Origin: Candidatus Kapaibacterium sp.
GTDB taxonomy: Bacteria > Bacteroidota > Ignavibacteria > Kapaibacteriales > NICIL-2
DNA: 64,000 nucleotides
Direction: 5' to 3'
NCBI GenBank assembly: GCA_026003495.1
Contig: BPHK01000001.1
Coordinates: 940,579 to 1,004,578, forward strand
The position numbers were made by a program, and so were the translations under genes. Of the stretch, positions 4,055 to 60,408 are shown piece by piece. The notes under the pieces are model-generated. The model was not told where the DNA came from. It saw only the letters and a program-made list of their open reading frames with translations, and searched no databases. Each line of letters begins with the position of its first letter. Positions within the stretch are counted from its first letter, which is position 1.

Positions 4055-9171
<5,117 letters not shown>

Positions 9172-9233
9172 GGGGAACTTTGGCACTTGCCCTGTGAGTT
9201 TGGGTTCCATCACGTCAGAATGGATCCTAGACG

Positions 9234-10235
9234 ATGCCAACTCACAGCTGGACGTTCGAGCAGTGGAAAGGCTTCGAAGCCAATACCCGCAATGCATTGA
9301 GCTGCTGTTCTACCGATGAACATGCCAGGCGCATTCTCTCTGATGCTGCCTGGCGGGTGCTTCGGAACTACAGCACGAGTTTTTTCATCGTGACCCGCTT
9401 TTTACCCTACGCCAAGCGGCGCGATGTCGAGCTGATCTATGCTGCTGTGCGCTATCCTGATGAAATTGTTGACACCTTTCCACTGGCGGCTGATCAGAAA
9501 CGCGCACTCTTGCAGCAGTGGCGCAACGACTACCATCGTGCACTTCAAGCTGACTCCCTTGTCGAGAGTATTCGCCGGGGTTCAAGTCCCTTCGCGGCGG
9601 GATTCGCCGATGTCGCACGGCGCTACAGCATTCCTCCGGAGCACTATGATGCATTCCTCGATGCAATGAATTTCGACATTGCCCCAGAACCATTTGCAAC
9701 ATTTGATGAGCTGATCGAGTGCTACGTCTATGGCAGTGCGATTGTGGTCGGCTACTTTTTGGCGTATGTGTACGGTACAGCGCCAGGTCACTCGCTCGAG
9801 GAAGCTCTCGCGAGTGCACGGTCGTTGGGTATTGCGCTCCAGCTGACAAATTTTCTCCGCGACATCTACGAAGATGACCTGCGCAGTCGGTGTTACGTCC
9901 CAGAGGAGCTTTTCCGCAACGTCGGAATCAGCTACCGCGAGTTTCTCAGAGGCATCAATCAACCAGCGACACAGCAAATCGTCCGTGAATATGCTCGTGT
10001 CGCGTGGGACTACTATCGCCAAGCCGAGGGAACACTTGATGCGTTCGATCCACGGTGTGTTTCCGCCATCAAGGCGTGTATCGCTGTCTATGGGGAGCTG
10101 ACGGCAATGCTCGAGCGACAATGCGATGTGCAGCGTCGTGCGAGTGTCCCCTGGTGGCGCAAGTTCGCTTGCCTGCCGCCAACGAAGTATTGGATTGTGC
10201 CGGTGAGTTTGGTCACTCCAGAGTATCGCCCATGA
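9234..10235 (+). CDS. crtB: phytoene synthase (squalene/phytoene synthase family)
   Basis: 333 aa; SkSF-like and Asp-rich regions typical of CrtB (RNYSTSFFIVTRFLPYAKRRDVELIYAAVRYPDEIVD; LQLTNFLRDIYEDD). Confidence 0.85.
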   Translation: MPTHSWTFEQWKGFEANTRNALSCCSTDEHARRILSDAAWRVLRNYSTSFFIVTRFLPYAKRRDVELIYAAVRYPDEIVDTFPLAADQKRALLQQWRNDYHRALQADSLVESIRRGSSPFAAGFADVARRYSIPPEHYDAFLDAMNFDIAPEPFATFDELIECYVYGSAIVVGYFLAYVYGTAPGHSLEEALASARSLGIALQLTNFLRDIYEDDLRSRCYVPEELFRNVGISYREFLRGINQPATQQIVREYARVAWDYYRQAEGTLDAFDPRCVSAIKACIAVYGELTAMLERQCDVQRRASVPWWRKFACLPPTKYWIVPVSLVTPEYRP

Positions 10236-11698
10236 GTCATCCAGTCGTGGTCATTGGAGCTGGGCTTGGCGGGCTGAGTGCTGCAATCCATCTGCGCATG
10301 CGAGGATTCGATGTGATGGTGCTCGAGAAAAATTCACAGCCAGGCGGACGTGCAAACCGCATTGACGATCGCGGGTACTTGTTCGATACAGGGCCGTCGC
10401 TGATCAATTATCCGTGGGTGTTCGAACAGCTCTTTGCTGCCAGTGGTGCAACGATGGGTGAGTATGTTAGGCTGATGCCTGTTGAGCCATCGGTGAAATT
10501 TTACTGGCGTGAGGGGAAGACTCTCTGTCTTAGTTCGCGATTCGATGGACTGGCTGAAGAATTTTCCAACTTCGAGAAGGCGGCCGATGTCAAGATTGCT
10601 CGGTTCATTCACGACACAGCACATCGCTTTCGAGTAGTCTTCGATCATCTTGTCACTCGGAATGCATCGTCGGTTGCTTCATGGATTGCGCCAGTGCCGA
10701 AGCGTGAACTTTTTCGACTAGGATTGTTCACTACGCTCGACCGCCAACTCAAGCGGTACTTCCGCTCCGAAAGAATCCGAGCCGCACTCGGATCGTATGC
10801 GATGTACCTCGGTGGATCGCCATACGAATTGCCAGGGACGTTTTCGATCCTTCCGTTCGGTGAGCTTTATTACGGACTGTGGTACCCTCGTGGTGGGATC
10901 TATTCGCTCGTGCGTGCAATTGAACAGCGTGCCAGAGAAATCGGCGTGGAACTGCGGTATAATGCACCAGTTTCGGCAATCACCACGCGAGGCACTCGCG
11001 TTCACGGTGTGCAGGTCGCCACTGGGGAATTCGTGCGGGCTGACGTTGTTGTCTCGAACGTTGATGTACCGACGACGTACCAGCTCCTTGGCAGAAATCC
11101 ATCGAGCCGTTCCTGGCCGATGACCCCAGGCGTCATTACGTTCTACTGGGGTATTTCTGCCGATGTGCCTCAGTTGCACCATCACTGCATTTTCTTGCCA
11201 TCGAACGTGCGGCAAGCCTATAAGCAGCTCAAGGAGCGCATCCCGGATGATCTGCCATTCTACACATGTCTTCCATCGCGGAGTGACCCGGCAGTTGCTC
11301 CCGAAGGAAAGCACACGCTCTTTGTCCTTGTTCCAACCCCTACCCTCTCACAGGCTGGTGAGAGCTTCGATTGGGATCGTGCAGTGTCTTTGGCAAGGGA
11401 GCAAGTGCTGGCACGGCTCCATCACCATGGTGTTGCGCTATCTGCCTCCTCGATCGAAGTCGAGCATGTCTGGACGCCGCGGGACTGGTCGCAGCGATTT
11501 GGACTGTACGATGGCTCAGCATTCGGCCTTTCGCATACGCTGATGCATATGGGACCACTTCGCCCGAGCAACCGAGACCCCCAAATTGCTGGGCTTTACT
11601 ACGTGGGCGCAAGCACTACACCTGGCACTGGACTGCCGATGGTTGTCCTCAGTGGTCGCATGACTGCCGAGCGTATCTGGAATGATACACGCCGTTGA
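10232..11698 (+). CDS. crtI: phytoene desaturase
   Basis: ORF 10055..11698 trimmed to MSHPVVVIGAGLGGLSAAIHL (FAD-binding GxGxxG); the ATG overlaps the crtB stop (ATGA); about 488 aa, CrtI-family length. Confidence 0.85.
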   Translation: MSHPVVVIGAGLGGLSAAIHLRMRGFDVMVLEKNSQPGGRANRIDDRGYLFDTGPSLINYPWVFEQLFAASGATMGEYVRLMPVEPSVKFYWREGKTLCLSSRFDGLAEEFSNFEKAADVKIARFIHDTAHRFRVVFDHLVTRNASSVASWIAPVPKRELFRLGLFTTLDRQLKRYFRSERIRAALGSYAMYLGGSPYELPGTFSILPFGELYYGLWYPRGGIYSLVRAIEQRAREIGVELRYNAPVSAITTRGTRVHGVQVATGEFVRADVVVSNVDVPTTYQLLGRNPSSRSWPMTPGVITFYWGISADVPQLHHHCIFLPSNVRQAYKQLKERIPDDLPFYTCLPSRSDPAVAPEGKHTLFVLVPTPTLSQAGESFDWDRAVSLAREQVLARLHHHGVALSASSIEVEHVWTPRDWSQRFGLYDGSAFGLSHTLMHMGPLRPSNRDPQIAGLYYVGASTTPGTGLPMVVLSGRMTAERIWNDTRR

Positions 11699-12419
11699 GT
11701 TCGGTAGTGGTGATCGCGTTCTCGTCGCACTGCATGGCTGGGGTGGCGATCACCGGACGTTCAAACCATTGGAAGGGCATCTTCCCGAAGGGTGGAGGAT
11801 TGTTGCGCTGGACTTGCCAGGCTACGGCCAGTCGAAGCCGATCGAACCATTTTCGCTCGACGGTGTTGTGGCAGCAATTGTCTCGGTCATCATGCAATAT
11901 CCAGTACCAGTCGAACTCATTGGGTCCTGCAGTGGAGCGGCCCTTGGAATGGAAGTTGCACTCCGCATTCCCGAACGCATCAGGAGAATTATTGCGCTCG
12001 ATTTGTTCGCGTACATGCCGCTGTACTTCCGCTTCTTCACAATACCGATGGTAGGTTCGATCGGATACCGGCGTACGTTCCACTCTGCTCTTGGGCGTAC
12101 TGCACTCAATGCACTGCTCTGGTTCCGGCGGACTCGGCAATCGAATCTGATGGAATCGTTCGCAGATAAAAACCCCGAGGTAACGCTCAGCTACCTTGGT
12201 GCACTTGCAACGCTCGAAGGTCCGCAACGTTACGCGTCCTTGCCGATGCCTGTAGAGTTCGTGTACGGTGCACGGACTTTTCGAGCTGTTCGCCGGTCAG
12301 TGGAGCGATGGAAGGCAACTCTTCCTCGCTTGAGGGTACATCGGATTGAAGGTGCTGGCCACCTTGTGCTTGACGAAGCCCCGCAGGCGGTTGCAGCAAT
12401 CATTCGGGATGTGCGATGA
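11682..12419 (+). CDS. alpha/beta hydrolase fold protein embedded in the carotenoid operon
   Basis: 245 aa; HGWGGD oxyanion region and a nucleophile elbow IGSCSGAALG; the start overlaps crtI by 17 nt and the stop overlaps the GT2 start (ATGA). Confidence 0.7.
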   Translation: MIHAVEFGSGDRVLVALHGWGGDHRTFKPLEGHLPEGWRIVALDLPGYGQSKPIEPFSLDGVVAAIVSVIMQYPVPVELIGSCSGAALGMEVALRIPERIRRIIALDLFAYMPLYFRFFTIPMVGSIGYRRTFHSALGRTALNALLWFRRTRQSNLMESFADKNPEVTLSYLGALATLEGPQRYASLPMPVEFVYGARTFRAVRRSVERWKATLPRLRVHRIEGAGHLVLDEAPQAVAAIIRDVR

Positions 12420-13537
12420 TTGTGCCGATCATCGCTATAGGAGCAGTTGCGCTCGCGGTGGTTGCAGTGATCAACGCGCTTGTATTTCTGCGGCCGTCGC
12501 GCTCGGGCGACGGAAACAACGACGCAACTGTCAGCATCTTGATTCCGGCGCGAAATGAAGAGCAGAGAATCAATCTCTGCTTGGCGTATGCCAGTGCACA
12601 GAGTGCGCTCGTCAAGGAGATTTTGGTTTACGACGACCAATCGTGCGATGCAACGTGTGCAATCGTCGAGGAGTGGGAGAAAATTGATCGTCGCATACGG
12701 CTCATTCGTGGTGATACACTTCCGGCAGGCTGGCACGGCAAGCCCCATGCTTGCTACCGATTGGCGGAGAATGCAACAGGTACATGGCTTCTATTCATTG
12801 ACGCCGATGTTCGTTTGTGTTCCGGAGCAGTCGAGCGTCTTCTCGCAACAGTAGCGCAACATTCCTGCACACTGCTTTCAGCATGGCCTGCGATCGCGAT
12901 GAAATCGTTGGCAGAAACACTGCTCATGCCAGTGCTGAACTTTTACGTGTTTACGCTCTTTCCCTCGCCGCTTCAGCTTGTTTCGAATGCTCCACGCTAT
13001 GCACTCGCACATGGGGCATGTTTGCTTTGCCACCGTGATACGTACTGGGCGATCGGCGGGCACGCGGTGGTGCGCAACGAACTTTTCGAGGATACAGCGC
13101 TTGCCCGCCACTGGCGAGCAAGTGGTGAGCGCGCGCTTTGCTGCGATGGACAACAGATCTGCACCGTTCGGATGTACTCAGGAGTAAGGGAGATTTGGCG
13201 TGGCTTCGAGAAAAATTTCTATCCCGGTTTCCGGCGCAAATGGTTGTTTGTCTTTGTGATGGCAATCCACGTAGCAGTGTTCACGGTGCCATTTATCGGC
13301 TTGCTTGTGTCTCCGACTCTGCCGTTTGCTGTTGCCGCATCGAGCGTCTTGGTGGCGCGCGGAGCGTTAGCCTTGCGCTTTCGCCAGCCTTTCTGGCCGA
13401 GCGTCTTTCATCCGATTGCTGAGCTCTTTCTCATCGCACTTGGCATTAGCTCGTTTCTCCGTTGGCACAGTCGGCGCGGCGTCGAATGGAAAGGGCGCCG
13501 CTATCGCAGTTTCACAGTCGAGCAAGGTGCGCGATGA
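12416..13537 (+). CDS. family-2 glycosyltransferase, membrane-anchored (carotenoid glycosyltransferase CruC/CrtQ-like)
   Basis: 373 aa; N-terminal TM then GT2 core (ILIPARNEE...VYDDQSCD...FIDADV), followed by C-terminal TM helices; position inside the crt operon. Confidence 0.65.
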   Translation: MIVPIIAIGAVALAVVAVINALVFLRPSRSGDGNNDATVSILIPARNEEQRINLCLAYASAQSALVKEILVYDDQSCDATCAIVEEWEKIDRRIRLIRGDTLPAGWHGKPHACYRLAENATGTWLLFIDADVRLCSGAVERLLATVAQHSCTLLSAWPAIAMKSLAETLLMPVLNFYVFTLFPSPLQLVSNAPRYALAHGACLLCHRDTYWAIGGHAVVRNELFEDTALARHWRASGERALCCDGQQICTVRMYSGVREIWRGFEKNFYPGFRRKWLFVFVMAIHVAVFTVPFIGLLVSPTLPFAVAASSVLVARGALALRFRQPFWPSVFHPIAELFLIALGISSFLRWHSRRGVEWKGRRYRSFTVEQGAR

Positions 13538-15009
13538 AAAAGCTCATCGTTGTTGGAGCAGGGCTTGGAGGATTAGCGCTTGCGCTCCGTGCCGCAAGTG
13601 CGGGATGGAGCGTCCACGTCGTCGAGCGCTATCGCACTCCAGGTGGAAAGATGAATCGCCTGGTGCAGGATGGGTACACATTCGATACAGGACCTTCGCT
13701 CATCACGTTGCCGGAGATTTTCACTGGGCTTTTCGATGAATGCCACGTAGATCGCTCTGAGCTTAAGTTCCACCGGCTTCTGCCGTTGACACTCTATCGC
13801 TTCAGCGATGGTAGCTCGATTGCATATCCATCGTCGTTGGCAGACCTTGCACAAACGCTCGAGAAGTTCGAATCGGACAAAGGCCGAGGGTTTTGGCGAT
13901 TGATCTCCACTGGCGCCAAGTTGATGGAGCTTTCACGCCGAACGTTTTTTCGGACAACGCCGCGAGAGCTGCCGTCTGTATCTGAAGCTCTCCAAATGCT
14001 CTCGGCACTCCGCTGGATGCCGATTCGGAATGCGTGGGGGAACTACGCAAACGCTGTCGAGCGGAATCTAGCCAGCCACTACCTTCAGCGGATTTTTCTG
14101 CGCTATCCGACCTACGTCGGATCGTCGCCGTACCGCTGCCCCGCGACCTTGCTTGTGGTCCCATACTTGGAGTTCGCACTTGGTGGCTGGTATCCCGAGG
14201 GCGGACTCTATCGAATCGTTGAGCTGATCGTTGATGCACTTTGTGCTCGGGGCGCAATCATCAGTACAAGCACACACGTCCGGCGAATCCTTCACCGCAA
14301 TGGAAGAGTCTACGGCGTTGAGCTTGAGTGTGGCGATGTTCTCGAAGCTGACGTTGTTGCATTCAACGGTGACGCAACAGTTGCTCATCAACTGTTGGGT
14401 TCGGGTCAACCAGCGCTGAAACGTATCGAGCGATCAATGTCCGGAGTGGTGTTTCTGGTTGGGTTGAAGTCCAGGCTTCCAGAGGATGTTTTCCACCATA
14501 CGATTGCATTCTCGCACGACTATCGGAAGGAGTTTGCCGAGCTGTTCGACGAGCGCAAGTTTCCGACAGATCCGACGGTGTACCTGAATGTCACAAGTAA
14601 GACCGACCCTGCGACAGCACCACCGGGCGGGGAGACGCTGTTCATCATGGCAAATGCTCCGGCCATTGATGGTGCCAAGTGGCGTCATCTTGAGCCGATG
14701 CTGTGGGAGCGAATTTGTAGAACGCTCTCCCGTTGCGGGATCGAAATTCCCGAAAGTCAAATAGCTGTCCGTCTGGCGCTGACACCGGAGGATTTCGAAC
14801 AGCGCTACGCAATGCCCGGAGGCTCGATCTATGGCTGGGCATCCCACTCATATCGCACAGCATTTGTTCGGCCGCCACTTCGGGATCGGCGCATTCAAGG
14901 GCTTTACTACGTTGGTGGAAGCACACATCCCGGAGGCGGAACCCCGATGGTGCTGATTTCTGCAAAACTTGTCTTCAATCTGATGCAGCGTCATGAAGTA
15001 CATACGTAG
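13534..15009 (+). CDS. phytoene desaturase-family FAD oxidoreductase (CrtD-like 3,4-desaturase candidate)
   Basis: ORF 13462..15009 trimmed to MKKLIVVGAGLGGLALALRAA (ATGA overlap with GT2 stop); 491 aa of the CrtI/CrtD/CrtN family. Confidence 0.7.
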   Translation: MKKLIVVGAGLGGLALALRAASAGWSVHVVERYRTPGGKMNRLVQDGYTFDTGPSLITLPEIFTGLFDECHVDRSELKFHRLLPLTLYRFSDGSSIAYPSSLADLAQTLEKFESDKGRGFWRLISTGAKLMELSRRTFFRTTPRELPSVSEALQMLSALRWMPIRNAWGNYANAVERNLASHYLQRIFLRYPTYVGSSPYRCPATLLVVPYLEFALGGWYPEGGLYRIVELIVDALCARGAIISTSTHVRRILHRNGRVYGVELECGDVLEADVVAFNGDATVAHQLLGSGQPALKRIERSMSGVVFLVGLKSRLPEDVFHHTIAFSHDYRKEFAELFDERKFPTDPTVYLNVTSKTDPATAPPGGETLFIMANAPAIDGAKWRHLEPMLWERICRTLSRCGIEIPESQIAVRLALTPEDFEQRYAMPGGSIYGWASHSYRTAFVRPPLRDRRIQGLYYVGGSTHPGGGTPMVLISAKLVFNLMQRHEVHT

Positions 15010-15751
15010 AGGCATTGCAGGACTATTCATCCTTCTGCTTGTCGGCGGTGCATTGACCTCGCCCCAAACAAGCGACATCATGTTTTTGCGCCGCTATGGA
15101 GAAATGCTCTTTCTCTGGGTGGCAGCTGCGGTCATTGCGCTTTTCCCGCATCGAGTGCTGGCGCAACTACTGGGTGCTGCATTGATCGGCTTTGCAAGTG
15201 AGATCATCGGGGTACGCTACGGCGTTCCCTATGGCGCCTATCACTACACACCGACGTTGGGCGCCAGTATAGCTGGAGTTCCACTGGCGATGGTAGCGGC
15301 GTGGATTGTGCTCCTTTCATACGCCTGGCAGCGTGCATCGGGACTGACACGCTCTCTTTGGACTGCACGGCTACTTGCGGCGTTGTTGATGGTAGCATTC
15401 GATTTGCTCATTGATCCCGTCGCGATCGGTCCGATGAAGTTGTGGGTTTGGCAAGAAAGCGGTCCATACTATGGAGTTCCGCTAGTCAACTTCCTCGGAT
15501 GGTTCGCGGTAAGCTACGTGTCACTTCTGTTTGTTCGCGCACCATTGCTGAGCGACTACCGTGTTGCTCATCTTGTCGGGGTGGCGGTGTTGACGTTCTT
15601 TGTTGTGCTCGCGCTTCGAAATGGATTGCTTGCAGCGGCGTCTGTTGGGGCAGTGCTCATCGGTATTGATGTGCTCTGCTGCAGGCGATGTTGGCAGCAG
15701 TATTTTGCGAGTGCACTCAAACGTGTAGAATTGCTTCTGCGATTGCGATGA
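14993..15751 (+). CDS. polytopic membrane protein, CruF-like carotenoid 1,2-hydratase candidate (carotenoid biosynthesis protein family)
   Basis: 252 aa with about 6 TM helices; start overlaps the desaturase stop by 17 nt; co-operonic with the crt genes. Confidence 0.45.
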   Translation: MKYIRRGIAGLFILLLVGGALTSPQTSDIMFLRRYGEMLFLWVAAAVIALFPHRVLAQLLGAALIGFASEIIGVRYGVPYGAYHYTPTLGASIAGVPLAMVAAWIVLLSYAWQRASGLTRSLWTARLLAALLMVAFDLLIDPVAIGPMKLWVWQESGPYYGVPLVNFLGWFAVSYVSLLFVRAPLLSDYRVAHLVGVAVLTFFVVLALRNGLLAAASVGAVLIGIDVLCCRRCWQQYFASALKRVELLLRLR

Positions 15752-17718
15752 TGTGTCTGGTGTGGGGGCTTCTCCTGCTCGGTTGGTGCAGCAACTGGGC
15801 GCAGGAAATTTCCTCGCCGACTCGCTTTATCGAGCAGCCCTTCGATGTTCTCGAGTATCGCGCATTCCTTGCGCTGGACTCGCTGCCAGCACCGGTGCTG
15901 GGCGAAAGTGCGTGTACGATGGTTGCTCGCTGGCGCGCCGTTCCCGACACGCTCCGCTTTCATCTCCGCGGGCTTGAAGTGCTCCGCTGCGAATACCTCC
16001 AAGACGACCGCGCTCTTCCGGTGTCGTGGCAGACGCGCGGCGCGCCAACGGATGCAACGTTCCACTATGCAGTCCCTGCACTTCCTTCACACCACCAAGG
16101 CGATACTGTTGCGCTGCGCATCACCTTCCGTGGCACAATGACGGGAGAACCGACCGTTGGCGGTGTATCCTGGGGCGGGGTCCAGCGCGAGGGTGCCATC
16201 GTTTATGCGCTGGGGGTGGGGTTCTACAACAATTACGTTTCTGCAACGCAGCACTGGCTGCCGTGCTACGACCATCCATCCGACAAAGCGCGATTTGACC
16301 TGACATTCCGCGTTCCGCGCTCGTACGTCGTAGCCAGTGGCGGACAGGAATTCCCCGTGCGTGATTCTGCGCAGTGGCGTCTTTTCCGGTTTCGTTCGGA
16401 CTATCCAGCGGCAACGTATCTGCTGACGTTCGCAGCGATACCGGAGAGCACCGTCGCTATCCTGCGCGATGACGCGTCGCTTCCGTATCCGATTGTGCTT
16501 TACGCTCGGCGTGCGGATTCGGCAGCGACTCGGCGAAGCTTTCGGTTGCTCCCACAGATGGTGACGGCGTTCGAGCGTCGTTTCGGAGCTTATCCGTTCG
16601 AAAAAGTTGGCTACGTGATGACGCAGAAAGGTGCCATGGAGCACCAGACGATGATTTCATACCCAACCTCGCTGGCTCGCAGTGGTGATACGGTCAATCT
16701 CGTGGCAGCGCATGAACTGGCGCACCAATGGTTCGGCGATTGTGTCACACCGTTTGACTTCCGCGATGCATGGTTCAACGAGAGCTTTGCAACGTTCGCT
16801 GAATCGCTCTGGCGCGAAGAGCTTGGTGGGACAAGCGCGTATCTCCACGAGCAGCAGCGAAAGATCACTGCCTACCTGAGCCAGTATGCAAAGCCGGGCA
16901 ATCCGCTCTTCGAAGGCATTCTGACGATGTACGATTTCGACCGCCGTCCTCCATCGTCGAACTATCCCCACGTCATCTACGAAAAGGGCGCTGCAGTGCT
17001 CGGTATGCTCCGTGCAGCGATCGGCGATAGCCTCTTTTTCCGGTGGTGTCGCACGCTGCTCGAGCGCTACCGCTATGGCAACGTTGCGCTCGACACAGTG
17101 GAACAGTTACTTGGTGAGTTGACGGGACAGCAGAACTTCGCCACGCAGTTTTTCAGCGAGTGGATACGTGGTAGGGGATGGCCAGTCCTCGCAATCGACG
17201 CGCTGAGCGAGCCATCGGCGTTTGGAAGGATTGCCACGCTCCACATTCGCCAAACGCAGCCCGATTCGCTGGGTATCTACACGACATTGCCGCTCGAGCT
17301 GAGCTTCATTGGTGCCGATACCGTCCATCGCATCGTCACGATCACTGCACGCGAGCAGACGGTAGTTCTCGATTCACTCAACACGTTTGGTGCCATCGCG
17401 GTCAACATCGGACCAAGAGTGCGGTCGCTTGTGCAGCTAGCTCAGACCCCGACTGTAACCGAGGTGCGTTCTGAGGGTGCACTGCCACCGCTGCGTGTCT
17501 TTCCAAACCCAGCAACGGAAACAGTGATGCTCTCCATTTCCAGCAACATTGCTGGTCCGGTGATGCTCTACGATGCGCGTGGCACTTGTATTCGGCATGT
17601 AGGAGGCGCAGGGATGCTTGCACTCTCGACGCAGGACCTTGCCGCAGGAACGTACTACGCTGTTGCGCGCGATCGAGCGCACCGGCTCCATGTTGCAGCA
17701 TTCGTCGTCCTGCGCTAG
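15748..17718 (+). CDS. secreted M1-family zinc aminopeptidase with C-terminal T9SS sorting domain
   Basis: ORF 15688..17718 trimmed to ATGATG at 15748 (overlaps the CruF-like stop); HELAHQWFGD zinc motif plus downstream NESFATFAE; KGAMEHQTM (GAMEN-type exopeptidase motif); the C-terminal about 80 aa are a T9SS-type beta-sandwich tail (VFPNPATETVMLSI...YYAVARD...). Confidence 0.75.
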   Translation: MMCLVWGLLLLGWCSNWAQEISSPTRFIEQPFDVLEYRAFLALDSLPAPVLGESACTMVARWRAVPDTLRFHLRGLEVLRCEYLQDDRALPVSWQTRGAPTDATFHYAVPALPSHHQGDTVALRITFRGTMTGEPTVGGVSWGGVQREGAIVYALGVGFYNNYVSATQHWLPCYDHPSDKARFDLTFRVPRSYVVASGGQEFPVRDSAQWRLFRFRSDYPAATYLLTFAAIPESTVAILRDDASLPYPIVLYARRADSAATRRSFRLLPQMVTAFERRFGAYPFEKVGYVMTQKGAMEHQTMISYPTSLARSGDTVNLVAAHELAHQWFGDCVTPFDFRDAWFNESFATFAESLWREELGGTSAYLHEQQRKITAYLSQYAKPGNPLFEGILTMYDFDRRPPSSNYPHVIYEKGAAVLGMLRAAIGDSLFFRWCRTLLERYRYGNVALDTVEQLLGELTGQQNFATQFFSEWIRGRGWPVLAIDALSEPSAFGRIATLHIRQTQPDSLGIYTTLPLELSFIGADTVHRIVTITAREQTVVLDSLNTFGAIAVNIGPRVRSLVQLAQTPTVTEVRSEGALPPLRVFPNPATETVMLSISSNIAGPVMLYDARGTCIRHVGGAGMLALSTQDLAAGTYYAVARDRAHRLHVAAFVVLR

Positions 17719-19392
17719 GTGATGCAGCGATTGCGTGTTGCGTTTCTCTGGCACTTCCATCAGCCGGACTACCGGCGCGGGAAGATGGCGCTCCTGCCGT
17801 GGGTTCGACTCCATGCGACGAAAGACTACGTAGAGTTGCCGGCGATCCATCGCGAATTTCCTTCGCTGCGGCTGACGTATAATCTGACGCCAATCCTTGT
17901 AGAACAGCTGGAGGCGCACGCTGCTGGGCAGTGTGCCGATGAGCATTTGGTGGTGGCATCACTGCCGGAACATCGTTGCATAGAGAACGCGGAGAGCATG
18001 CTCCGATGGGGATTTGTCGGTCATGCACCACGCATGATCGAGCCGTTTGTACGCTACCGCGAACTCTGGGAAGAAGCACAGTCGGGCAAATGGAAGACGT
18101 GGTCGGCGCGCGAGTGGCTTGATTTGCAAGTTTGGATGCGCCTTGCTTGGTTAGGAACAACGACGCGCGAGATACGGAGCATTGCAAAGCTTCTCGAAAA
18201 AGGCAGCAGCTTTACAGCCGATGACCGCGCTATCACGATTGCGGTTGAGCACGAGCTCCTAGCGAACGTTCTCATGCGATTGCGTGAGCTTGCAGTCGCA
18301 GGTCTTGCTGACATCAGCTGCTCGCCGTACTATCATCCCATCCTGCCACTGCTGTGCGATACCGACGTTGCTGCCGAGGTAGATTCGGACATTGAGCGGC
18401 TCGAGCCTCGGTTTGCTTGGCCAGAGGATGCACTCGAGCAACTCCGACGCGCGCGTACGTACATCGAGCAGCAGATGGGAATTTCCCCACGCGGGATTTG
18501 GCCGAGTGAAGGCAGCATCAGCGATGCTGCGCTGGCTGCAATTGCTGCAAGTGGTGCTGAGTGGACAGCAACCGACCAAGTTCTCCTTGAGCGGAGCATC
18601 GTGCCACCGTCTGCAAGCTGGCTCTACCAGCCTTTTGTGTGGGAATCACCAAGCGGGCAGCGGCTTGCAGTGTTCTTCCGGGACCACACGCTCAGTGATG
18701 CAATCGGTTTTGTCTATAGCTCGTGGGATGCGCACTCTGCAGTGCGGGATTTTCTCGAGCGTCTTGATGCCATTCGCACCCGGATTCTCGACGAGCAAGG
18801 TGCAGCGTTTCTCGATCGCGCAGTCGTGACGGTTATTCTCGATGGCGAAAACTGCTGGGAATACTACGAGGGCAATGGTGCACCCTTTCTCCGTGCACTC
18901 TACGGGGCACTCACCAGCGATGAACGCTTCGAAACAGTCCTGCTTGGCGAGTGTGCCCGTCGTGCCTTAGACTCAGCCGATACGCCTGTGCTCCGACATA
19001 TCGCCCCTGGCTCGTGGATTGGCGGGAGCTTCCGCATCTGGATCGGCGATGGAGAAGATCGTTCCGCATGGTCACTTCTACGCCAGGTTCGGCATGCATT
19101 CGAAGAGCAGAAGCATAGCTTGACAGATTTCCAGCGGGATGATGCATACCGTCACATCCTCGCTGCGGAAGGAAGCGATTGGTTCTGGTGGTTTGGGCCT
19201 GAGCACCGCGCAGCATTCCGCAGCGTGTTCGATGAGCTTTTCCGCGAGCATCTTCGCATGGCGTGGGCTGCAATGGGCATGGATGCTCCTCCGGAACTAA
19301 CCCAGCCAATCATGACCAGTGAGAGCTCAGTTAGCCCGTGGGGCGCGATGCACCCTGCTACTGCTCCCACTGAATTTCGGCGCGGCGGTTGA
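17719..19392 (+). CDS. glycoside hydrolase family 57 protein (alpha-glucan acting)
   Basis: 557 aa; N-terminal FLWHFHQPDYR signature of GH57; the GTG/ATG start abuts the peptidase stop. Confidence 0.8.
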   Translation: MMQRLRVAFLWHFHQPDYRRGKMALLPWVRLHATKDYVELPAIHREFPSLRLTYNLTPILVEQLEAHAAGQCADEHLVVASLPEHRCIENAESMLRWGFVGHAPRMIEPFVRYRELWEEAQSGKWKTWSAREWLDLQVWMRLAWLGTTTREIRSIAKLLEKGSSFTADDRAITIAVEHELLANVLMRLRELAVAGLADISCSPYYHPILPLLCDTDVAAEVDSDIERLEPRFAWPEDALEQLRRARTYIEQQMGISPRGIWPSEGSISDAALAAIAASGAEWTATDQVLLERSIVPPSASWLYQPFVWESPSGQRLAVFFRDHTLSDAIGFVYSSWDAHSAVRDFLERLDAIRTRILDEQGAAFLDRAVVTVILDGENCWEYYEGNGAPFLRALYGALTSDERFETVLLGECARRALDSADTPVLRHIAPGSWIGGSFRIWIGDGEDRSAWSLLRQVRHAFEEQKHSLTDFQRDDAYRHILAAEGSDWFWWFGPEHRAAFRSVFDELFREHLRMAWAAMGMDAPPELTQPIMTSESSVSPWGAMHPATAPTEFRRGG

Positions 19393-20584
19393 GCGCTCGA
19401 CCTTCCTCGCTCTCGTTCGGAGCCATGGGACGAGTTCTCCCATAGCCTTCCGTTGTCATGCGGCTTGTATCAACGCCACGGCGGCGGAGGTAGTCGCGCA
19501 CCGACTGCGCGCGTGCAAGAGAAAGCTGCTGATTGTACGCATCACTCCCGATGGAGTCGGTATGGCCTGCGATTGTGATGCGCCGCGCACGCTGCAAGAT
19601 CTGCACAATGCTATCGGGTACTGCAAGCGGTGGGAGAGCGCTGCTATTGAACGCAAAGTGGACGGTCCACGAAGACAGTGGCAGCGGCTGGTACTTTTTT
19701 TCGAGGGTGGCAAGGTAAATCCCCATCCGTGCTGCACCATCATCGCTCGAAATGTACACAGCGGTATCGCCAGTAGGAAAAAGCCACCAGCAGAGGTCCA
19801 TCTCCGGCGTGTTGATTGGTTCGGGCAGGACAATTGGCTGTGACCACTGCTCCCAGGAGTCGTCGAGCCGTCGGGTCATGACGATGTCGTACTTGCCGTT
19901 GGAGCCATAGCCAGTCGTTGCGTAGTAGAGCGTTCGTCCGTCGCGAGCAAGGAAGGGAGAACTCTCCATGCCCGGTGTATTGACCGTCGAGCCGAGATTG
20001 CGCGGGGTTGTCCAAGTGAGGGATTCCCCAATACGGTGCGAAACGTAGAGGTCCAGCCCACCGAAGGAATCAGGCCCTTGGAGCGAGAGGATCAGCGTCC
20101 GCATATCCGGGGTCATGAAGGCGTAGTAGTAGCTGGAGCGGTTCGTGTAGCCTTCGATGGTGATGGGTTCGAATGTCCAGGTCTGGCCGACTTGCCGTGC
20201 CAGCACGAAATGCTCGGTTTCGCCGTTTCCGCTGCCGCGCTGGACGAGCGCAGTCTTTCCATCAGCGGCGAAACCGAAGAGGACGTCGCTATACGGCGTG
20301 TTGAGCGCATCGAGCCGTTCCGGCGTCCCCCACGTAGAATCGCTCGTGCGGCGAGCAAACCAAATGTCGTCGGGATCACTCGAACCGCCGACATTGCCGG
20401 GGAAGTACTTCCGGGAAAAGTAGAGGATGCTCCCATCAGGAGAGAGCACTGGCGCAACGACGGGCTGGTGCGCATTGATCTGGCCGGGGATGCGCCACTT
20501 GCGCGTGATCGTCGGAAGGTCGCCATCGCGTGCAATTGCCAGCACGCATGCAGCAGCAAGCATGCAACTTAGTCGAGTCCACAT
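19358..20584 (-). CDS. OmpA-family outer-membrane protein with beta-propeller (TolB-like) repeats
   Basis: ORF trimmed to MWTRLSCMLAAACVLAIA (signal peptide); C-terminal OmpA/MotB peptidoglycan-binding domain (ITIAGHTDSIGSDAYNQQLSLARAQSVRDYL...NRRAEI). Confidence 0.7.
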   Translation of the reverse strand: MWTRLSCMLAAACVLAIARDGDLPTITRKWRIPGQINAHQPVVAPVLSPDGSILYFSRKYFPGNVGGSSDPDDIWFARRTSDSTWGTPERLDALNTPYSDVLFGFAADGKTALVQRGSGNGETEHFVLARQVGQTWTFEPITIEGYTNRSSYYYAFMTPDMRTLILSLQGPDSFGGLDLYVSHRIGESLTWTTPRNLGSTVNTPGMESSPFLARDGRTLYYATTGYGSNGKYDIVMTRRLDDSWEQWSQPIVLPEPINTPEMDLCWWLFPTGDTAVYISSDDGAARMGIYLATLEKKYQPLPLSSWTVHFAFNSSALPPLAVPDSIVQILQRARRITIAGHTDSIGSDAYNQQLSLARAQSVRDYLRRRGVDTSRMTTEGYGRTRPMAPNESEEGRALNRRAEIQWEQ

Positions 20585-21867
20585 CGCTTGTAGAGGTAAG
20601 AAATGTTCGACAACGATCGCTCGCCGCGAAAGATTGCGTCGAGGTCCTCTGGCTGGAGATATTGACGAATGAGCGGCTCTTCCCAGAGTGTCTGGCGGAG
20701 ATGTCGCCCTTCGTCCCATGACTTCATTGCTGCTCGTTGGACGGCAGCGTAGGCATCTTGGCGGGATACGCCACGACGGACCAATTCCAAGAGGACGGTT
20801 TGCGAATAGATCACCCCGTGCGAGCGTTCGATCGTTTCGCGCATTCGATCGGGGTAAACGACTAATTGCTCGACCAGTTCTGTCGCCAGTGCGAGCATGT
20901 AGTCGAGCGCGATGGTGGAATCCGGGCAGATAACGCGCTCGACGCAGCTGTGGGAGATATCGCGCTCGTGCCAGAGCGCGTTGTTCTCGAGGGCTGCCAG
21001 TGCGTTCGAGCGAAGAAGGCGTGCCAGCCCGCAGATACGTTCGCTGATGATGGGATTGCGCTTGTGTGGCATTGCCGAAGAGCCTTTCTGCCCAGCGCTG
21101 AAGTACTCTTCGGCTTCTCGGACTTCCGTCCGCTGGAGATGACGGATTTCGAGCGCGATTTTCTCAACAGAACTGGCGATAATTGCCAGCGTGCAGAGAA
21201 ATTCCGCGTGCCGATCGCGCTGGATGACTTGCGTTGTGATGGGATCTGGCGTGAGCCCGAGCTTGGCGCAGACGTACTCTTCAACGCGTGGATCGAGATG
21301 TTCGAACGTTCCAATTGCACCGCTGAGCTTGCCAACGGCAATCGTCTCGATGGCACGGCGGAGCCGTTCGATATTTCGGAGGCATTCCTGGCGGTAGAGC
21401 AGAAACTTCAGTCCAAAGACCATCGGTTCAGCGTGGACGCCGTGGGTACGTCCGACGCAGAGTGTCGAGCGGTGCTCGCGTGCTCGACGCTCCAGCGCAG
21501 CAGCGAGCTGCTCTAAGTCGCCGAGAAGTAGCTCGCCCGCTTGCTTGAGCTGGACGGCAAGGCAAGTGTCGAGCACATCGCTGCTGGTCATGCCTAAGTG
21601 CAACCAACGTGCGGCGGGGGAGCCGACGTTTTCGGTAACGTTGGTCAAAAACGCGATGACATCGTGCTTTGTTTGGCGCTCGAGTTCCGCAATTCGCTCG
21701 ACGGAAAAGCGTGCTTTTGCACGAAGCTCTTCATAGTCTTGGCGAGGGACAATGCCAAGCTCGACGTGTGCTTCGACCGCTAGAAGCTCGATCTCGAGCC
21801 AGATGCTGAATTTGTTTTCATCGCTCCAAATCGCACCCATCGCCGGGCGCGTGTACCGTTCGATCAT
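20569..21867 (-). CDS. purB: adenylosuccinate lyase
   Basis: 432 aa starting MIERYTRPAMGAIWSDENKF; fumarate-lyase family signature region GSSAMPHKRNP. Confidence 0.9.
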   Translation of the reverse strand: MIERYTRPAMGAIWSDENKFSIWLEIELLAVEAHVELGIVPRQDYEELRAKARFSVERIAELERQTKHDVIAFLTNVTENVGSPAARWLHLGMTSSDVLDTCLAVQLKQAGELLLGDLEQLAAALERRAREHRSTLCVGRTHGVHAEPMVFGLKFLLYRQECLRNIERLRRAIETIAVGKLSGAIGTFEHLDPRVEEYVCAKLGLTPDPITTQVIQRDRHAEFLCTLAIIASSVEKIALEIRHLQRTEVREAEEYFSAGQKGSSAMPHKRNPIISERICGLARLLRSNALAALENNALWHERDISHSCVERVICPDSTIALDYMLALATELVEQLVVYPDRMRETIERSHGVIYSQTVLLELVRRGVSRQDAYAAVQRAAMKSWDEGRHLRQTLWEEPLIRQYLQPEDLDAIFRGERSLSNISYLYKRCGLD

Positions 21868-32767: not shown

Positions 32768-33889
32768 TTGCTGGCCAGGAGGGAAACCGCCAAATTTGCA
32801 ACCGTTCTGCAGAGCACATTGCGTAGGCACTCGATGAGTCTGCAAGAGGCTAACTCTGACGACGAGAGTTTCACTCCTGAGATAGGTTTAGCGATGCGCG
32901 TTCGAGATCGGCGGTATCACGTGCTCATAGTCATTCTCTTGTTGATCTGGGGTCCCCCTCAAGGGTGGGCTGATGGCAATGTCGGCATTGGTACGACGTC
33001 TCCCGATACATCGGCATTGTTGGAGCTTCGCTCGGTTCGGAGCGGGCTGCTTATCCCACGAATGACGACTGCACAGCGGGATGCGATTATTCTTCCGGCA
33101 AAGAGTCTCCTGATTTTCAACACTACAACCAATCGCTTCGAGTACAACGACGGCACCCCCGCTGCACCGAATTGGGTGCCATTCCTCACCGGAAGTGGCA
33201 GTTTTTGGTCGTTGCAAGGTATCCCAAGGTGTTGATTCTGACGGCTCGGAATCGAGCAATTACAATCAAATGCATATTCACAAGCAAAGGTTCCGTCATA
33301 TGCAGTGGGGCTTTCTATGTCTGGCGCGATTTTCTCAATCGCGGCTCCCTTACCAACAGTGGGCTTATCGAGGTGGGGCAGCCATGAACCAACGGTTGTG
33401 CCAATGCCAACCCGAGTCTAATCCTGCCCGCTGGTGCACAAGGGCAACCCAAGCTGCTGCGTGGTTATAGAGCACCGGTCCGTGGTTTCTTCCTCAACCA
33501 TGCATCGAACATCGGCGGGGCAAGTGTCAATAGCAGCGGCGTCCTCGATCTCCGCGCGGATGGTCGCTCGGAATCTCCATTTGCTATCGTTGGCTCTGGG
33601 AGTGCAATTTTAGTCACTGTACCTACAGCGCGGCTTCGCATCGCGAACGCTTCGCAGCTCAATGTTGATGGTTCCAGCCATCTGGTCGTTTCGAGCACGT
33701 GGCAACCCGCGGCGTTGACCATTGACTCTGGTTCGACACTCCGTATCAGTGCAACGGGAACACCGGGACGCTTTTCGTTGCTCGACTTATCCATAATGGA
33801 TTTTGTGGGTATGAACTTAACACTGCACTGTTCCTGCTCAATGCGATGTATGAATGCGGCACTACGGTCCGCTATCGTGGATCGTAGCT
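32768..33889 (+). pseudogene. probable remnant of a secreted surface / fibre-like protein gene, disrupted by a frame change near 33200 and an in-frame TGA at 33385
   Basis: Frame-2 ORF 32768..33235 carries a signal peptide and the motif GNVGIGTTSPDTSALLEL...GLLIPRMTTAQRDAIILPAKSLLIFNTTTNRFEYNDGTPAAPNWVPF, which resembles the N-terminal modules of Bacteroidota tail-fibre-like surface proteins. Frame 1 then holds a 168-codon stop-free stretch (33388..33889) with beta-helix-like sequence (ILVTVPTARLRIANASQLNVDGSSHLVVSSTWQPAALTIDSGSTLRISATG), but with no start codon and no C-terminal part. Confidence 0.3.
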
Positions 33890-34316
33890 AACCCAGTCCT
33901 CCAGGCTACTGCTGCAGAGCCGAACCATCGCTACGGTATTCTCGAAACATAGGGAGGTAATAAGCGAGCCAATGGCGACGTGCACGTTGGCTGCGGACTG
34001 TTAGTCAATACCTGCTCAACTCCGCATACCATCTCGATGGTGATTATACGCTCACAGTGCACCATGCCGACACTGCTTTCACCACGATTTGGCAAGATTC
34101 TGCATTTGCTGATTGCCAGTCTCTGTCAGAGGTTCCTGGGCGCTTCCGCCATGTTTAGCAGCACGCGTCATCGTTGACCAAAGCACCAACGGTGCTGCTT
34201 AGAAATTCGCTGCAGATGCGATAGGTCCTTCCGCTGACAGGCTTTCATTTGCATTTGGGCGTGATGTTACGCTCGAGTATTAGGCTCGGCAGGAACTGGA
34301 GCTTCGGTCGCGGCAG

Positions 34317-35126: not shown

Positions 35127-38100
35127 CTATCGAACGATGAGCAACTGTCGTGTTATGCGAACAGGACCGCTTTCGTAGCGGACGAAATAGAGTCCGCTGC
35201 TCATGTCTGCAATCGGCACGTCGAGTTGATAGGTGCCTGCGGAAAGCTCACCATCGAGTACTGTCCGCACCGGATTACCGAGTGCATCGTAGAAGCGAAT
35301 GCTTGTGGGTGCATCGAAGCCAACACCGAATCGAATTGTGACCGCATCACTTGTCGCTGGGTGGGGGCTAACGTCCACGATTGAGAACGTTGTCGTGGAG
35401 ACTTTGACAAAGCGTCCGTCAATGAAGCAAGTCGTCGGCAGCAAACTATCGCCGAGCACAGTAGGAATTACGCACCGCCGCTCACTGTTGCCGGCACCAT
35501 ATGGGATGCATTCGGCGATCGCAGTTGTAGCGAAGCGCTGCTCAGCAAGATCGCTAATGAGCACAGTAAAGCGGAGCGTTGCAACGGCGCCGTTGGCAGC
35601 AATTGGCGTCTGCCCGCGACCTTGAATGAGAAGCTCCGCAGTACTCGTTGTGCCATCGAGTGATTCTTGCGCTGTTAGTTGCCAAGTTGCATCAAGCACT
35701 TCTCCGCGCGTGATGCTGTTGGGCACGTAGAGGAGCTGCTTTGCGTTGTAACGAACGCGAATGTCGAATCCGTACACTTGCGCTCCTCCCCAGTTGAGAG
35801 AACGGACTTGCACTTGAGCGCCTGCATCGTTTCCGCTTCGGAAGTTGAACAGTGGGGAATCGAATGTCGTCCGTACTTCGATTGGGATAACGTACCCTAC
35901 CCCGCGGAGCTCAGCGGTATCGGCATCGCCGCCACGATATTCGACGCGAATAAATGCGCTATAGCCACGTGGTTGGTCAGGGAGGAATCGTACCGCAATT
36001 GGGCGTGTTTGCCCAGCCGATACCACCAGCGGATTGGCAGGCGTTGGCGGAGATTCGAGTGCGAAGTACGCAGCATCGGGTCCGAGGATTGTTGCACCGA
36101 TGACTTCGACGTCAGACGCGGGAGTGCCGGCAGGTGCGGTATTGGTCACTGTGGCGGCACCGAGGGGTTGATCACACGTGGTAACCGAGCCAAAGTCGTA
36201 TCCTTCCAGCGTCGGTTGGTTGACGGTATAGCCATAGCCAATTAGCTCGACGATCGTCTCTGCTTGCCCGGTCGGCTCTGGGACGGGAGGCTCGGCGTTG
36301 TGGAGGATACGCACAAGCGCTTTCCGCTCTCCTGTCCCTGATGGGCGAAATTGAACTGCCAAGAGCGCAGGCGCAGCACCAATCGGAAGTGTGGCATCTT
36401 GGAGGGCATCGAGCAACTGGAAATCCTCCGGGTAGAGGTTCCGATTTGGATCGCGCGTCGGGAGCAGCTCAACGGCATAAACGCGGAGGTCTGCTGATTG
36501 GCTCGTATTCGTGATGGTAACAAATTGTTCGGTGTTGCCGGCTTGGCTTTGGGTCGTTGTCCCCACCAGGATTGGTGTGCGGAAGATCGCACCCGTTGCC
36601 TCGATTTTTTCGAGGTAACCAAATGCAGTCAGTGCATCCGACCGGGTACCGACGCCAGTGAAGTCACCCAGGAGGCGACTTGTCAGATCAAATTCCGCTT
36701 GGGGTGTGCAGGCGATCTGAACGCGAACGACGTCTTGACCGTTGGGGAAGAGTGTAAACGGTGGCTGACGATCGGCACCGACAATGCGGAAATTCTGCTC
36801 GTTGGCAGGAAGGTACACAGCGGTGCATTGCACTTGATCTTGACCGTCGTTGCGAACGAGGCCATTGAGCACTTTTGTGGTACCGAGCCGAACGCGTCCC
36901 CAGCTGTTTCCAATGACAATTGGCCCTGGAGAGATTGATTGGCCTTTCCACTCCGACCATGGCTTGTCGCCTCCAGAGCCGGGCGCATCGCTCATGAAAC
37001 GGACGGTAATGGAGAAGGTGCTATCGTTTGTCGGGGCAAAACACATTTCCTTGAGAAAGACTTCGCCGCCCGGCGGAATCGTTATCGGCAGTGGCGGATC
37101 GGTCGGGTCGGTGAGACTAAATGGTGGCTGAATCGTCGAGCGATCGATGTCGGTGATTGTCAGTGTATCGGTGCCAGGGTTGCGGATGCGTAGTCCACGA
37201 GCTAACTGCTGAGAATGGCAGCGGGATTGACCCGATGGGACAGTTCCTGCGTCCCAATCATCGACGATGATGTGTGGCTGGATGCCACGCCCGAGAACCT
37301 GTACAGCGAACGGCGCACATTGCTCGACGACCAAGAGGGAATCCTCATCGCGCTCATTGTCGCGAACATGCTCAGTTTGGGGCGTGTAGCGGAGGCGGAC
37401 TTGAATGCTTTGTCGCGGATACAGTGCTAAGCCACCCGGTGGAATTGTCGGCTCCACAATTGCGAATGCTGACCCCTTTTTCAGACGGAGGTCCGTGATG
37501 AGAAATGTTGAATCTGCATTGTTCGTAATGGTTGCAGTTATCTCCGTAGATCGTCCGACACGAACGTTCCCGGCATCAATAGGATTGGGGCGGATCGAAA
37601 CCTTCGGTGCAACCCAGAAGACGCTGTCATAGCTGAAGTTGAGTGCACGATCGCCGACGTAGAAGTACGCTTGTGCATCTTTGGTTTTATCTATGACCCG
37701 CAGGCGGAATTTGACGATGCTGTTTTTCTGATCTTGCGGAAGGATGTTATCCGTGATGAGATTGCCATCAGCCTCGAGTAATTCAATTGCGTAGTTGAAC
37801 GATGGCTTGCCCTCGACAAAGTCGATGGCATTGATTCCGGTTCCAATATGGTTGAGGGTGTCGTTGATTGGAAAATCTTGTCCTGTCTCACGTGCAGTGT
37901 AGATGTAGTCACCGCATTCTTGTTCGCGGCTTAGTGGCGGTGGAATGGTATCGAATTCATCGAGTCTGCGGTAGGCGGTGGCAGCAGGCCACCCGTAGGA
38001 ATCGAAGCTGCCCCAACCGTAGATGTAGCCACCAAACGGTGCGTTTCCTTCGATCAGGTGCGCACCGTTGTTGACGAAGAGACGGGCGTAGTGAAAGTTC

Positions 38101-48739: not shown

Positions 48740-48781
48740 GATGTGCAAATTAGTAGTTGCTGCACAACGTCGAGTGTATCC

Positions 48782-60275: not shown

Positions 60276-60309
60276 TGGGGAAGCGATGCTCGTATTTTTG
60301 CGCTGCGCT

Positions 60310-60398
<89 letters not shown>

Positions 60399-60408
60399 CC
60401 GAGCACTT

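Follow-up and report, generated by a model that had tools for sequence, protein, structure and literature searches.

A cysteine-type alpha/beta hydrolase in a conserved carotenoid glycoside gene module of Candidatus Kapaibacterium: a candidate acyltransferase

Carotenoid glycoside esters stabilise and protect the membranes of thermophiles, halophiles and phototrophs, and the acyltransferases so far assigned to them are all membrane proteins of the lysophospholipid acyltransferase (LPLAT) type, several of them still putative. For example, Rhodothermus marinus uses CrtB, CrtI, CruF, CruC and CruD, of which CruC and CruD carry out glycosylation and acylation (PMC7414004), and the carB operon of Myxococcus xanthus includes a putative LPLAT acyltransferase gene, orf9, just before carA-carH (PMC8156234; PMC9304148 Table S2). 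Here we describe a six-gene carotenoid cluster (g1 to g6) in a 64-kb stretch of contig BPHK01000001.1 of Candidatus Kapaibacterium sp., hereafter the window. The pigment operon itself is ordinary; what is new is a conserved hydrolase with a cysteine nucleophile, the product of g3, where known systems have an LPLAT protein. We read the six genes as a single conserved pathway module, probably transcribed from a promoter of its own, that would make a glycosylated C40 xanthophyll, with acyl transfer as the most likely role of g3, and we put the chances of this reading at about even. The features are as follows:

9174..9202, + strand: promoter-like motif GGAAC-N19-GTTTG, with -35/-10 elements like those of extracytoplasmic function (ECF) sigma factors, in the 62-nt gap before crtB
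9234..10235, + strand: g1, phytoene synthase, CrtB-like, SQS_PSY family, 333 amino acids
10232..11698, + strand: g2, phytoene desaturase of the CrtI family, 488 amino acids, ATGA overlap with g1
11682..12419, + strand: g3, soluble alpha/beta hydrolase with a putative Cys83-His227-Asp107 triad, 245 amino acids, 17-nt overlap with g2
12416..13537, + strand: g4, membrane family-2 glycosyltransferase (GT2), CruC/CruG/HpnB-like, 373 amino acids, ATGA overlap with g3
13534..15009, + strand: g5, second CrtI-family desaturase, closest to the 1-hydroxycarotenoid 3,4-desaturase CrtD, 491 amino acids, ATGA overlap with g4
14993..15751, + strand: g6, CruF-type carotenoid 1,2-hydratase, Caroten_synth family, about eight transmembrane segments, 252 amino acids, 17-nt overlap with g5

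All six open reading frames (ORFs), spanning 9234-15751 in the window's ORF list, begin with ATG, and every junction between them is an overlap, of 4 nt (ATGA) at g1/g2, g3/g4 and g4/g5 and of 17 nt at g2/g3 and g5/g6. In coordinates, strands and overlaps this reproduces an earlier, sequence-only reading, which had concluded from the overlaps that the genes form one co-translated unit. The overlaps themselves stand, but they do not prove a functional unit, as they are frequent elsewhere in the window: a 4-nt overlap is possible at about 4 of about 22 other same-strand junctions, and the upstream ligA and amidohydrolase genes also share an ATGA (6154-6157). The unbroken run from g1 to g6 (five overlaps at five junctions) is denser than this background; overlaps are nevertheless common in this genome, and the tight packing, although real, is weak evidence for a functional unit. 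The case for such a unit comes instead from the recurrence of all six genes, in unchanged order, at loci from many phyla. Among the relatives of the window is the contig of 'Bacterium HR20' (Kapabacteria, NICIL-2 lineage), which is 93.9% identical over 13 kb, and a protein of Chlorobi bacterium NICIL-2 matches the g4 GT2 at 94% identity, which together assign the window to the Kapabacteria/OPB56 lineage of Bacteroidota; the source organism is an uncultured hot-spring/compost bacterium.

We compared 80 loci, obtained by a one-genome-per-species scan with an alignment of close g3 proteins, and the synteny counts rest on tblastn of the six window proteins onto these hydrolase loci; ORF calls in the high-GC loci are crude, with some real genes masked by antisense ORFs, and taxon labels are those of the deposited metagenome-assembled genomes (MAGs). 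The genes stand in the order crtB-crtI-hydrolase-(crtE)-GT2-crtD-cruF at about 55 of these 80 loci, from at least nine phyla. By record title, the module is found in Kapabacteria/Chlorobiota, Blastocatellia/Pyrinomonadaceae (Acidobacteriota), Hydrogenedentota, Dehalococcoidia/SAR202, Planctomycetota and NC10, and further in Verrucomicrobiota, Kiritimatiellae, Sumerlaeia, Armatimonadota and Myxococcota, and it is complete in a cultured SAR202 strain, Ca. Lucifugimonas marina JH545 (L043). Directly upstream of the hydrolase stand crtB-crtI in 58 of the 67 loci with enough upstream DNA, and downstream of it GT2, crtD and cruF (42 of 53 loci); in all three contexts chosen via the GT2 alone, the hydrolase occupies the same slot. 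A polyprenyl synthase gene lies between hydrolase and GT2 in about 22 loci, and 20 of 21 in-cluster prenyl synthases have a small residue at position -5 of the first aspartate-rich motif (FARM), the signature of a geranylgeranyl diphosphate (GGPP) synthase (CrtE), from which we argue for a C40 pathway.

What kind of protein, then, is the g3 product? It has 245 residues and no membrane segment, and its Pfam matches (Abhydrolase_6/1) are to alpha/beta-hydrolase families only, which sets it outside the CruD/Orf9 LPLAT family with its HX4D and EGTR motifs. The hallmarks of the alpha/beta hydrolase fold, i.e. an eight-strand core, a G-x-Nu-x-G elbow, and a histidine and an acid in loops, are all present. 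The invariant residues of the family alignment are HGW-x-G (18-22), G81-x-C83-S84-G85, D107, G138-R139 and G226-H227, giving the signature HGW-x-G, G-x-C-S-G, D-x-F, G-R, G-H-L, and in a profile alignment with BioH, Cys83 falls on the catalytic serine. An AlphaFold model (predicted local distance difference test, pLDDT, 94.3) has a canonical alpha/beta fold with a helical cap (114-184), which carries conserved Arg/His residues (R117, R139, R183, H24), and places His227 after beta8; Asp107, after beta6, is likely to be the third member of the triad, because the model has no acidic residue after beta7. Over 84 loci the triad is kept almost without exception (Cys in 83 of 84, His in 82 of 82, Asp/Glu in 84 of 84). 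Searched exhaustively with a profile, 1.84 billion representatives gave only 104 sequences at E <= 1e-30, with the cysteine kept at the nucleophile position to about match 135 of the ranking and ordinary serine enzymes thereafter, and a sequence search with g3 gave only 18 close proteins before a gap from E 1e-44 to 1e-10. On these sequence comparisons the g3 family is distinct, rare and uncharacterised, and no paper found by full-text search describes a crt cluster with an alpha/beta hydrolase. A kinship with BchO was considered and rejected: at 53.8 the TIGR03056 score falls well short of its cutoff (172.6) and does not exceed those for BioH or MenH.

For the other five genes the hidden Markov model scores agree with the families that the earlier reading had named, as they do for the hydrolase. 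g1 scores 188.1 bits with PF00494 (SQS_PSY; cutoff 26) and has both Asp-rich motifs in its translation (YPDEIVD and RDIYEDD); it lies below all NCBIfam equivalog cutoffs, at 88.8-101.7 for CrtB (cutoffs 480-550) and 147 for HpnD (278.6). The two desaturases, which are 30% identical to one another and both have an N-terminal GxGxxG motif for flavin adenine dinucleotide, exceed the TIGR02734 crtI_fam cutoff of 238.1, g2 with 416.6 bits and g5 with 332.5. The best models for g2 are of the CrtI/CrtID type, the best equivalog being CrtID at 347 bits, under its cutoff. g5 misses both CrtD equivalogs (NF045637, 295 against a cutoff of 580; NF042421, 281.5 against 500), and CrtD is still its best specific model, ahead of CrtID at 259; we thus call g5 CrtD-like by functional analogy, its scores falling short of membership. 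g4 matches PF00535 (Glycos_transf_2) at 64.3 bits, with a DAD motif in its translation and predicted hydrophobic segments, one N-terminal and three C-terminal. Whether it belongs with carotenoid glycosyltransferases had been raised as a point to check, and its best curated matches are CruG (154.5; cutoff 600) and HpnB (144.5; cutoff 379), both below cutoff; homologues at 48-56% identity bear the Joint Genome Institute (JGI) name 'chlorobactene glucosyltransferase' (CruC), so that g4 is a putative carotenoid glycosyltransferase. The membrane protein g6, for which the same had been asked of CruF, does have the expected similarity: PF04240 (Caroten_synth) scores 104.5 bits (cutoff 25) and about eight hydrophobic segments are predicted, with CruF equivalog scores of 85, 63 and 57, all below cutoff (TIGR03460, 85 against 154.7; NF045693, 56.7 against 400). 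In other words, the family calls are secure, and the exact specificities are predictions, uncertain because the equivalog cutoffs for CrtB, CrtD, CruF and CruG are all missed.

Of equal interest is what does not accompany these genes. The sequence-only reading had pointed to a missing CruD-type acyltransferase with a soluble hydrolase in its place, and this holds up well: an LPLAT motif search with a Pfam check found no LPLAT/CruD-type acyltransferase in the window or in 84 related loci (three loose regular-expression matches were all without a Pfam match), and the hydrolase is a fixed member of the module. There is no lycopene cyclase in the window, nor one that recurs in related clusters, and no crtE/GGPP synthase gene in the window, the crtE and cyclase searches having covered 64 kb of this genome. 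The window does contain ispF (YgbB) of the methylerythritol phosphate (MEP) pathway at 48728-49258 (+) and a gene resembling the N-terminal part of transketolase and 1-deoxy-D-xylulose 5-phosphate (DXP) synthase at 39652-40593 (+), which are consistent with isoprenoid precursor supply via the MEP route.

The pathway that we propose would begin with CrtB (g1) joining two GGPP molecules to phytoene, which CrtI (g2) would desaturate to lycopene. CruF (g6) would then add water across the C-1,2 double bond, leaving a tertiary 1-hydroxyl, the CrtD-like g5 would introduce a 3,4 double bond, and the CruC-like membrane GT2 (g4) would glycosylate the hydroxyl. The product is likely an acyclic C40 1-hydroxy-3,4-didehydro carotenoid glycoside, predicted to be acyclic because neither window nor clusters hold a cyclase, and possibly modified at both ends. 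As an integral enzyme of this pathway, which g3 probably is, the hydrolase would be loaded at Cys83 as an acyl-thioester from acyl-CoA, an acyl-acyl carrier protein or a lipid and would pass the acyl group to a sugar hydroxyl, yielding a carotenoid glycoside ester, a step performed elsewhere by LPLAT-type CruD/Orf9. The pigment would serve in photo- and oxidative protection of the membrane.

Why acyl transfer? By analogy with known enzymes, g3 most plausibly acylates the glycoside, and four considerations lead us to favour this role. Enzymes of the alpha/beta fold with a cysteine nucleophile include polyhydroxyalkanoate (PHA) synthase, an acyl-CoA-dependent ester-forming transferase, and a cysteine nucleophile in g3 would likewise suit thioester chemistry. 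Every pathway of this type that has been characterised or proposed acylates by means of an LPLAT protein, yet no LPLAT gene accompanies the module. In the Myxococcota MAG at locus L077, the hydrolase takes the slot of orf9 before carH. Finally, plant xanthophyll esterification also uses hydrolase-related enzymes, according to a preprint (bioRxiv 10.64898/2026.07.28.741266). More broadly, and with confidence a little better than even, we regard the Cys-His-Asp hydrolase as a candidate for an unrecognised class of carotenoid enzyme, either a soluble thioester-type acyltransferase that replaces CruD/Orf9 or an accessory to CrtB and the desaturase; it would mark a horizontally spread module that is the chief route to pigment in a wide range of largely uncultured lineages (Kapabacteria, Blastocatellia, Hydrogenedentota, SAR202, Planctomycetota and others).

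How far does the unit extend? The six genes are part of a ten-gene co-directional block (4085-19392, +) made up of ligA, a gene for a 1005-residue amidohydrolase, the six crt genes, an M1 peptidase gene and a GH57 gene, which ends at a convergent OmpA/PD40 gene (19358-20719, -). The M1 peptidase gene can start within an ATGA overlap at 15748, as a Kapabacteria homologue annotated with a 4-nt overlap there also does, and the GH57 gene starts 0-3 nt past the M1 peptidase stop. The ten-gene order is kept in all Kapabacteria loci (L001, L005-L010 and L014; 51-97% protein identity), and the four outer genes stand beside the module in Kapabacteria only, the flanks differing in every other phylum. 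The earlier suggestion that the operon continues into the M1 peptidase and GH57 genes therefore does not survive comparison beyond Kapabacteria; judged by gene content and synteny, these two, ligA and the amidohydrolase gene are a lineage-specific arrangement of mixed functions and not pathway genes. The M1 peptidase has a weak match to a C-terminal sorting domain of the type IX secretion system (T9SS), below cutoff in PF18962 (20.6; cutoff 27) and TIGR04183 (18.9; cutoff 23) and at the right position, so the earlier label of a T9SS-secreted enzyme stays tentative.

The start of the unit is marked by GGAAC-N19-GTTTG, which has a single match in the window (chance expectation 0.17) and is kept at the same place in Kapabacteria L001/L010, L005, L007 and L009, the rest of the spacer having diverged. 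The motif resembles a promoter of the ECF-sigma type, a function we assign from its sequence, and suggests that crtB may start its own transcript; in Myxococcus and Streptomyces, carotenoid synthesis in response to light is driven by ECF sigma factors. The window showed no ECF sigma gene. A scan for sigma-70 promoters and terminators gave nothing above shuffled background in the cluster, with no consensus sigma-70 site and no convincing terminator inside it, and co-transcription of g1-g6 is a prediction with indirect support from this, from the overlapping stop and start codons and from the motif before g1. An Rfam scan of the window returned three tRNAs only.

Outside Kapabacteria the module has other neighbours, i.e. 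a MerR/B12-binding CarH-like regulator, a class-2 photolyase, a TIGR01777 (YfcH/ThyD-like) oxidoreductase and an SRPBCC protein, which together look like a light-response neighbourhood:

L011 1835-5749; L085 2286-3149; L077 9747-10778; L087 1-2928: CarH-like, photolyase, TIGR01777 and SRPBCC neighbours, in Acidobacteriota, Hydrogenedentota, Myxococcota and others

The window has none of the four, which means that Kapabacteria must regulate the module in another way. The slot between hydrolase and GT2 is filled in two Acidobacteria-type clusters by an extra small ORF without a Pfam match (L085 6914-7501, 195 amino acids; L086 4358-5068, 236 amino acids) and elsewhere by an AhpC/TSA-like protein (L059 10746-11276; L087 7375-8004), and we regard these fillers as optional members of the module. 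In one Blastocatellia locus, a 23S-rRNA-intervening-sequence-protein/bAvd-like gene is inserted between crtD and cruF (L031 13540-13887).

Several observations count against the reading of g3 as a glycoside acyltransferase in a C40 pathway. The absence of a CruD-type gene applies to the 64-kb window, and such a gene may lie elsewhere in the genome; the scores for CrtB, CrtD, CruF and CruG are all under the NCBIfam equivalog cutoffs; and fold searches with g3 return generic esterases, BioH, KAI2 and dehalogenases only, so the direction of its reaction, transfer or hydrolysis, is not fixed by its neighbours. In 9 of the 80 loci the hydrolase has no crt gene nearby; the stand-alone examples L012, L026, L029 and L068 have hisS, purA, BREX and phosphoesterase neighbours, which are uninformative. 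In addition, the hydrolase stays with crtB-crtI in the rotated clusters L037, L063 and L065, locus L058 (6517-9735) has the crtB-crtI-hydrolase trio alone, with unrelated neighbours (a heparinase-like protein and a xylose-isomerase-like TIM barrel) and no GT2, crtD or cruF within 9 kb downstream, and in Myxococcota the hydrolase sits beside a different CrtI/CrtB lineage (27-30% identity). The hydrolase is thus linked more tightly to crtB-crtI than to the GT2, unlike what one would expect of a sugar-acylating enzyme. This linkage speaks for a role with the early enzymes, be it in diphosphate or thioester handling, in isomerising cis-polyenes by reversible thiol addition, or in delivering or releasing hydrophobic product: crtI lies directly upstream in the 58 of 67 loci mentioned above, usually with overlapping stop and start, the three-gene block survives rotation and splitting (L037, L063, L065, L058) and the change of CrtI/CrtB lineage in Myxococcota, and R117, R139, R183 and H24 of the cap could bind a phosphate-bearing ligand. 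However, many heterologous hosts make all-trans lycopene with CrtB and CrtI alone, which leaves no known step to be filled; the module order is not the pathway order, cruF being last and yet acting before crtD and GT2; and we know of no precedent for such an accessory enzyme. We consider an early role unlikely, although it deserves to be kept in mind. That g3 is a true hydrolase which tailors the glycoside, either by deacetylating an N-acetyl-hexosamine, as HpnK does after HpnI in hopanoid synthesis, or by remodelling or removing acyl groups, would fit with its closest sequence and fold neighbours, which are esterases such as BioH, and with a GT2 about equally like HpnB and CruG. Yet no amino-sugar carotenoid is known to us, HpnK has a different fold, and an invariant cysteine in place of serine is unusual in simple esterases, making this quite unlikely.

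The hydrolase might also have no carotenoid substrate at all and travel in the operon as a co-regulated gene for light or oxidative stress, for example to clear photo-oxidised lipids. In other phyla, photolyase, TIGR01777 oxidoreductase, SRPBCC, AhpC/TSA-like and TspO genes lie within or beside the module, and the 9 loci without crt genes point the same way; but such accessory genes vary from locus to locus, whereas the hydrolase keeps the same internal position in about 87% of loci, across nine phyla or more, and its family is very small and largely confined to the crt context, so we judge this explanation very unlikely. A C30, squalene-derived route to a staphyloxanthin-type glycoside ester, with a CrtM/HpnD-like synthase, CrtN/CrtP-like oxidases and a CrtQ-like GT2, is suggested by the best NCBIfam score of g1, HpnD (147) ahead of CrtB (102), and by the HpnB-like side of the GT2. 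The HpnD, CrtB and HpnB scores are, however, all far below their cutoffs, the desaturases score best against CrtI/CrtD models, and CruF and CrtD act, to our knowledge, on C40 psi-ends in all characterised cases; we find the C30 route highly improbable and reject it on the GGPP-synthase signature of 20 of the 21 in-cluster prenyl synthases of relatives. Scarcely credible, lastly, is a larger unit in which the M1 peptidase and GH57 genes, perhaps with ligA and the amidohydrolase gene, are functionally tied to pigment synthesis. The gap-free or overlapping cruF/M1 and M1/GH57 junctions and the ten-gene order in all Kapabacteria loci speak for it, but none of the four genes ever adjoins the module outside Kapabacteria, the ligA/amidohydrolase ATGA illustrates that overlaps here join unrelated genes, and the conserved promoter-like motif separates the upstream genes from crtB.

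We are left with a rare hydrolase with a strictly conserved cysteine, in a fixed slot in at least nine phyla, which is a testable candidate for a missing or alternative step of carotenoid glycoside ester synthesis. The module can also serve as a marker from which to predict the pigments of uncultured groups, among them the SAR202 clade, which is abundant in the sea. For annotation the lesson is that, in a genome as compact as this one, ATGA coupling does not make pathway members of the neighbouring M1 peptidase, GH57, ligA and amidohydrolase genes. Elsewhere in the window, 35127-39476 (-) encodes a large protein of 1449 residues, probably secreted or exposed at the surface, that combines an IgGFc-binding-like domain with Ig-like/ASH repeats, a weak cohesin match and, at its C-terminus, a T9SS sorting-domain match just below cutoff. 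Another alpha/beta hydrolase/esterase, unrelated to g3, lies at 60220-61581 (+); its longest ORF crosses tRNA-Ser(cga) and tRNA-Leu(cag) (60310-60493), so its true start must be downstream of 60493. The interval 33236-34316 (about 1.08 kb) has no ORF of at least 110 amino acids on either strand and no Rfam or tRNA match at the gathering threshold.

How does the locus compare with the systems that are already described? For the hydrolase, the comparison is with alpha/beta enzymes that have a cysteine nucleophile, such as the PHA synthase PhaC and dienelactone hydrolase (DLH), and with BioH-like esterases, with all of which it has in common an alpha/beta fold with a helical cap. PhaC and DLH have their cysteine at the G-x-Nu-x-G elbow, as g3 does, and profile and fold searches gave no specific PhaC or DLH match for g3. 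Its nearest solved relatives are BioH and small esterases, a generic similarity at 16-22% identity, and it differs in its acid residue, D107 after beta6 rather than after beta7.

For the pathway, the cyanobacterial route to myxol and oscillol glycosides (CruF, CruG) has the CruF family in common with the module, and CruG is the best curated match of the GT2. Oscillol diglycosides have no ring and carry modifications at the two ends, which is also what we predict for the product here. In contrast, the CruG score of the GT2 (154.5) is far below 600, we recognised no 2-hydroxylase candidate, and the cyanobacteria use CrtP/CrtQ-type desaturases where the module has CrtI. The glycoside ester pathways of Chlorobi, Rhodothermus and Salinibacter, with CruF or CrtC as hydratase, CruC and CruD, follow the same logic, in which a psi-end is hydrated at C-1 and glycosylated by a membrane GT2, with acylation following in those organisms. 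The module described here differs in having no LPLAT-type CruD, with the Cys-His-Asp hydrolase as a fixed extra member, and no cyclase or ketolase, so that an acyclic product is expected; cruF and crtB, which are fused in R. marinus, are separate genes in the window. The pairing of CruF with a CrtD-like enzyme also sets the module apart from these pathways and from the Myxococcus operon.

The Myxococcus carB operon resembles what we propose for the module: it protects against light by means of a carotenoid glycoside ester, and it encodes a CrtD, a hydratase and a glycosyltransferase (orf6). Many relatives of the module adjoin a gene for a CarH-type B12 photoreceptor, as in Myxococcus, whereas the window has no CarH gene. 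Where Myxococcus has a CrtC-type hydratase, a heterodimeric cyclase and the LPLAT-type orf9 (PMC9304148 Table S2), the module has CruF, no cyclase and the hydrolase. Homology between M. xanthus orf9 and the g3 family was considered and rejected, as orf9 is of the LPLAT type (PMC9304148 Table S2), and displacement is what we propose instead: in the Myxococcota MAG L077, with the order crtE-crtI-crtB-H-carH, it is the hydrolase (H), and not orf9, that precedes carH.

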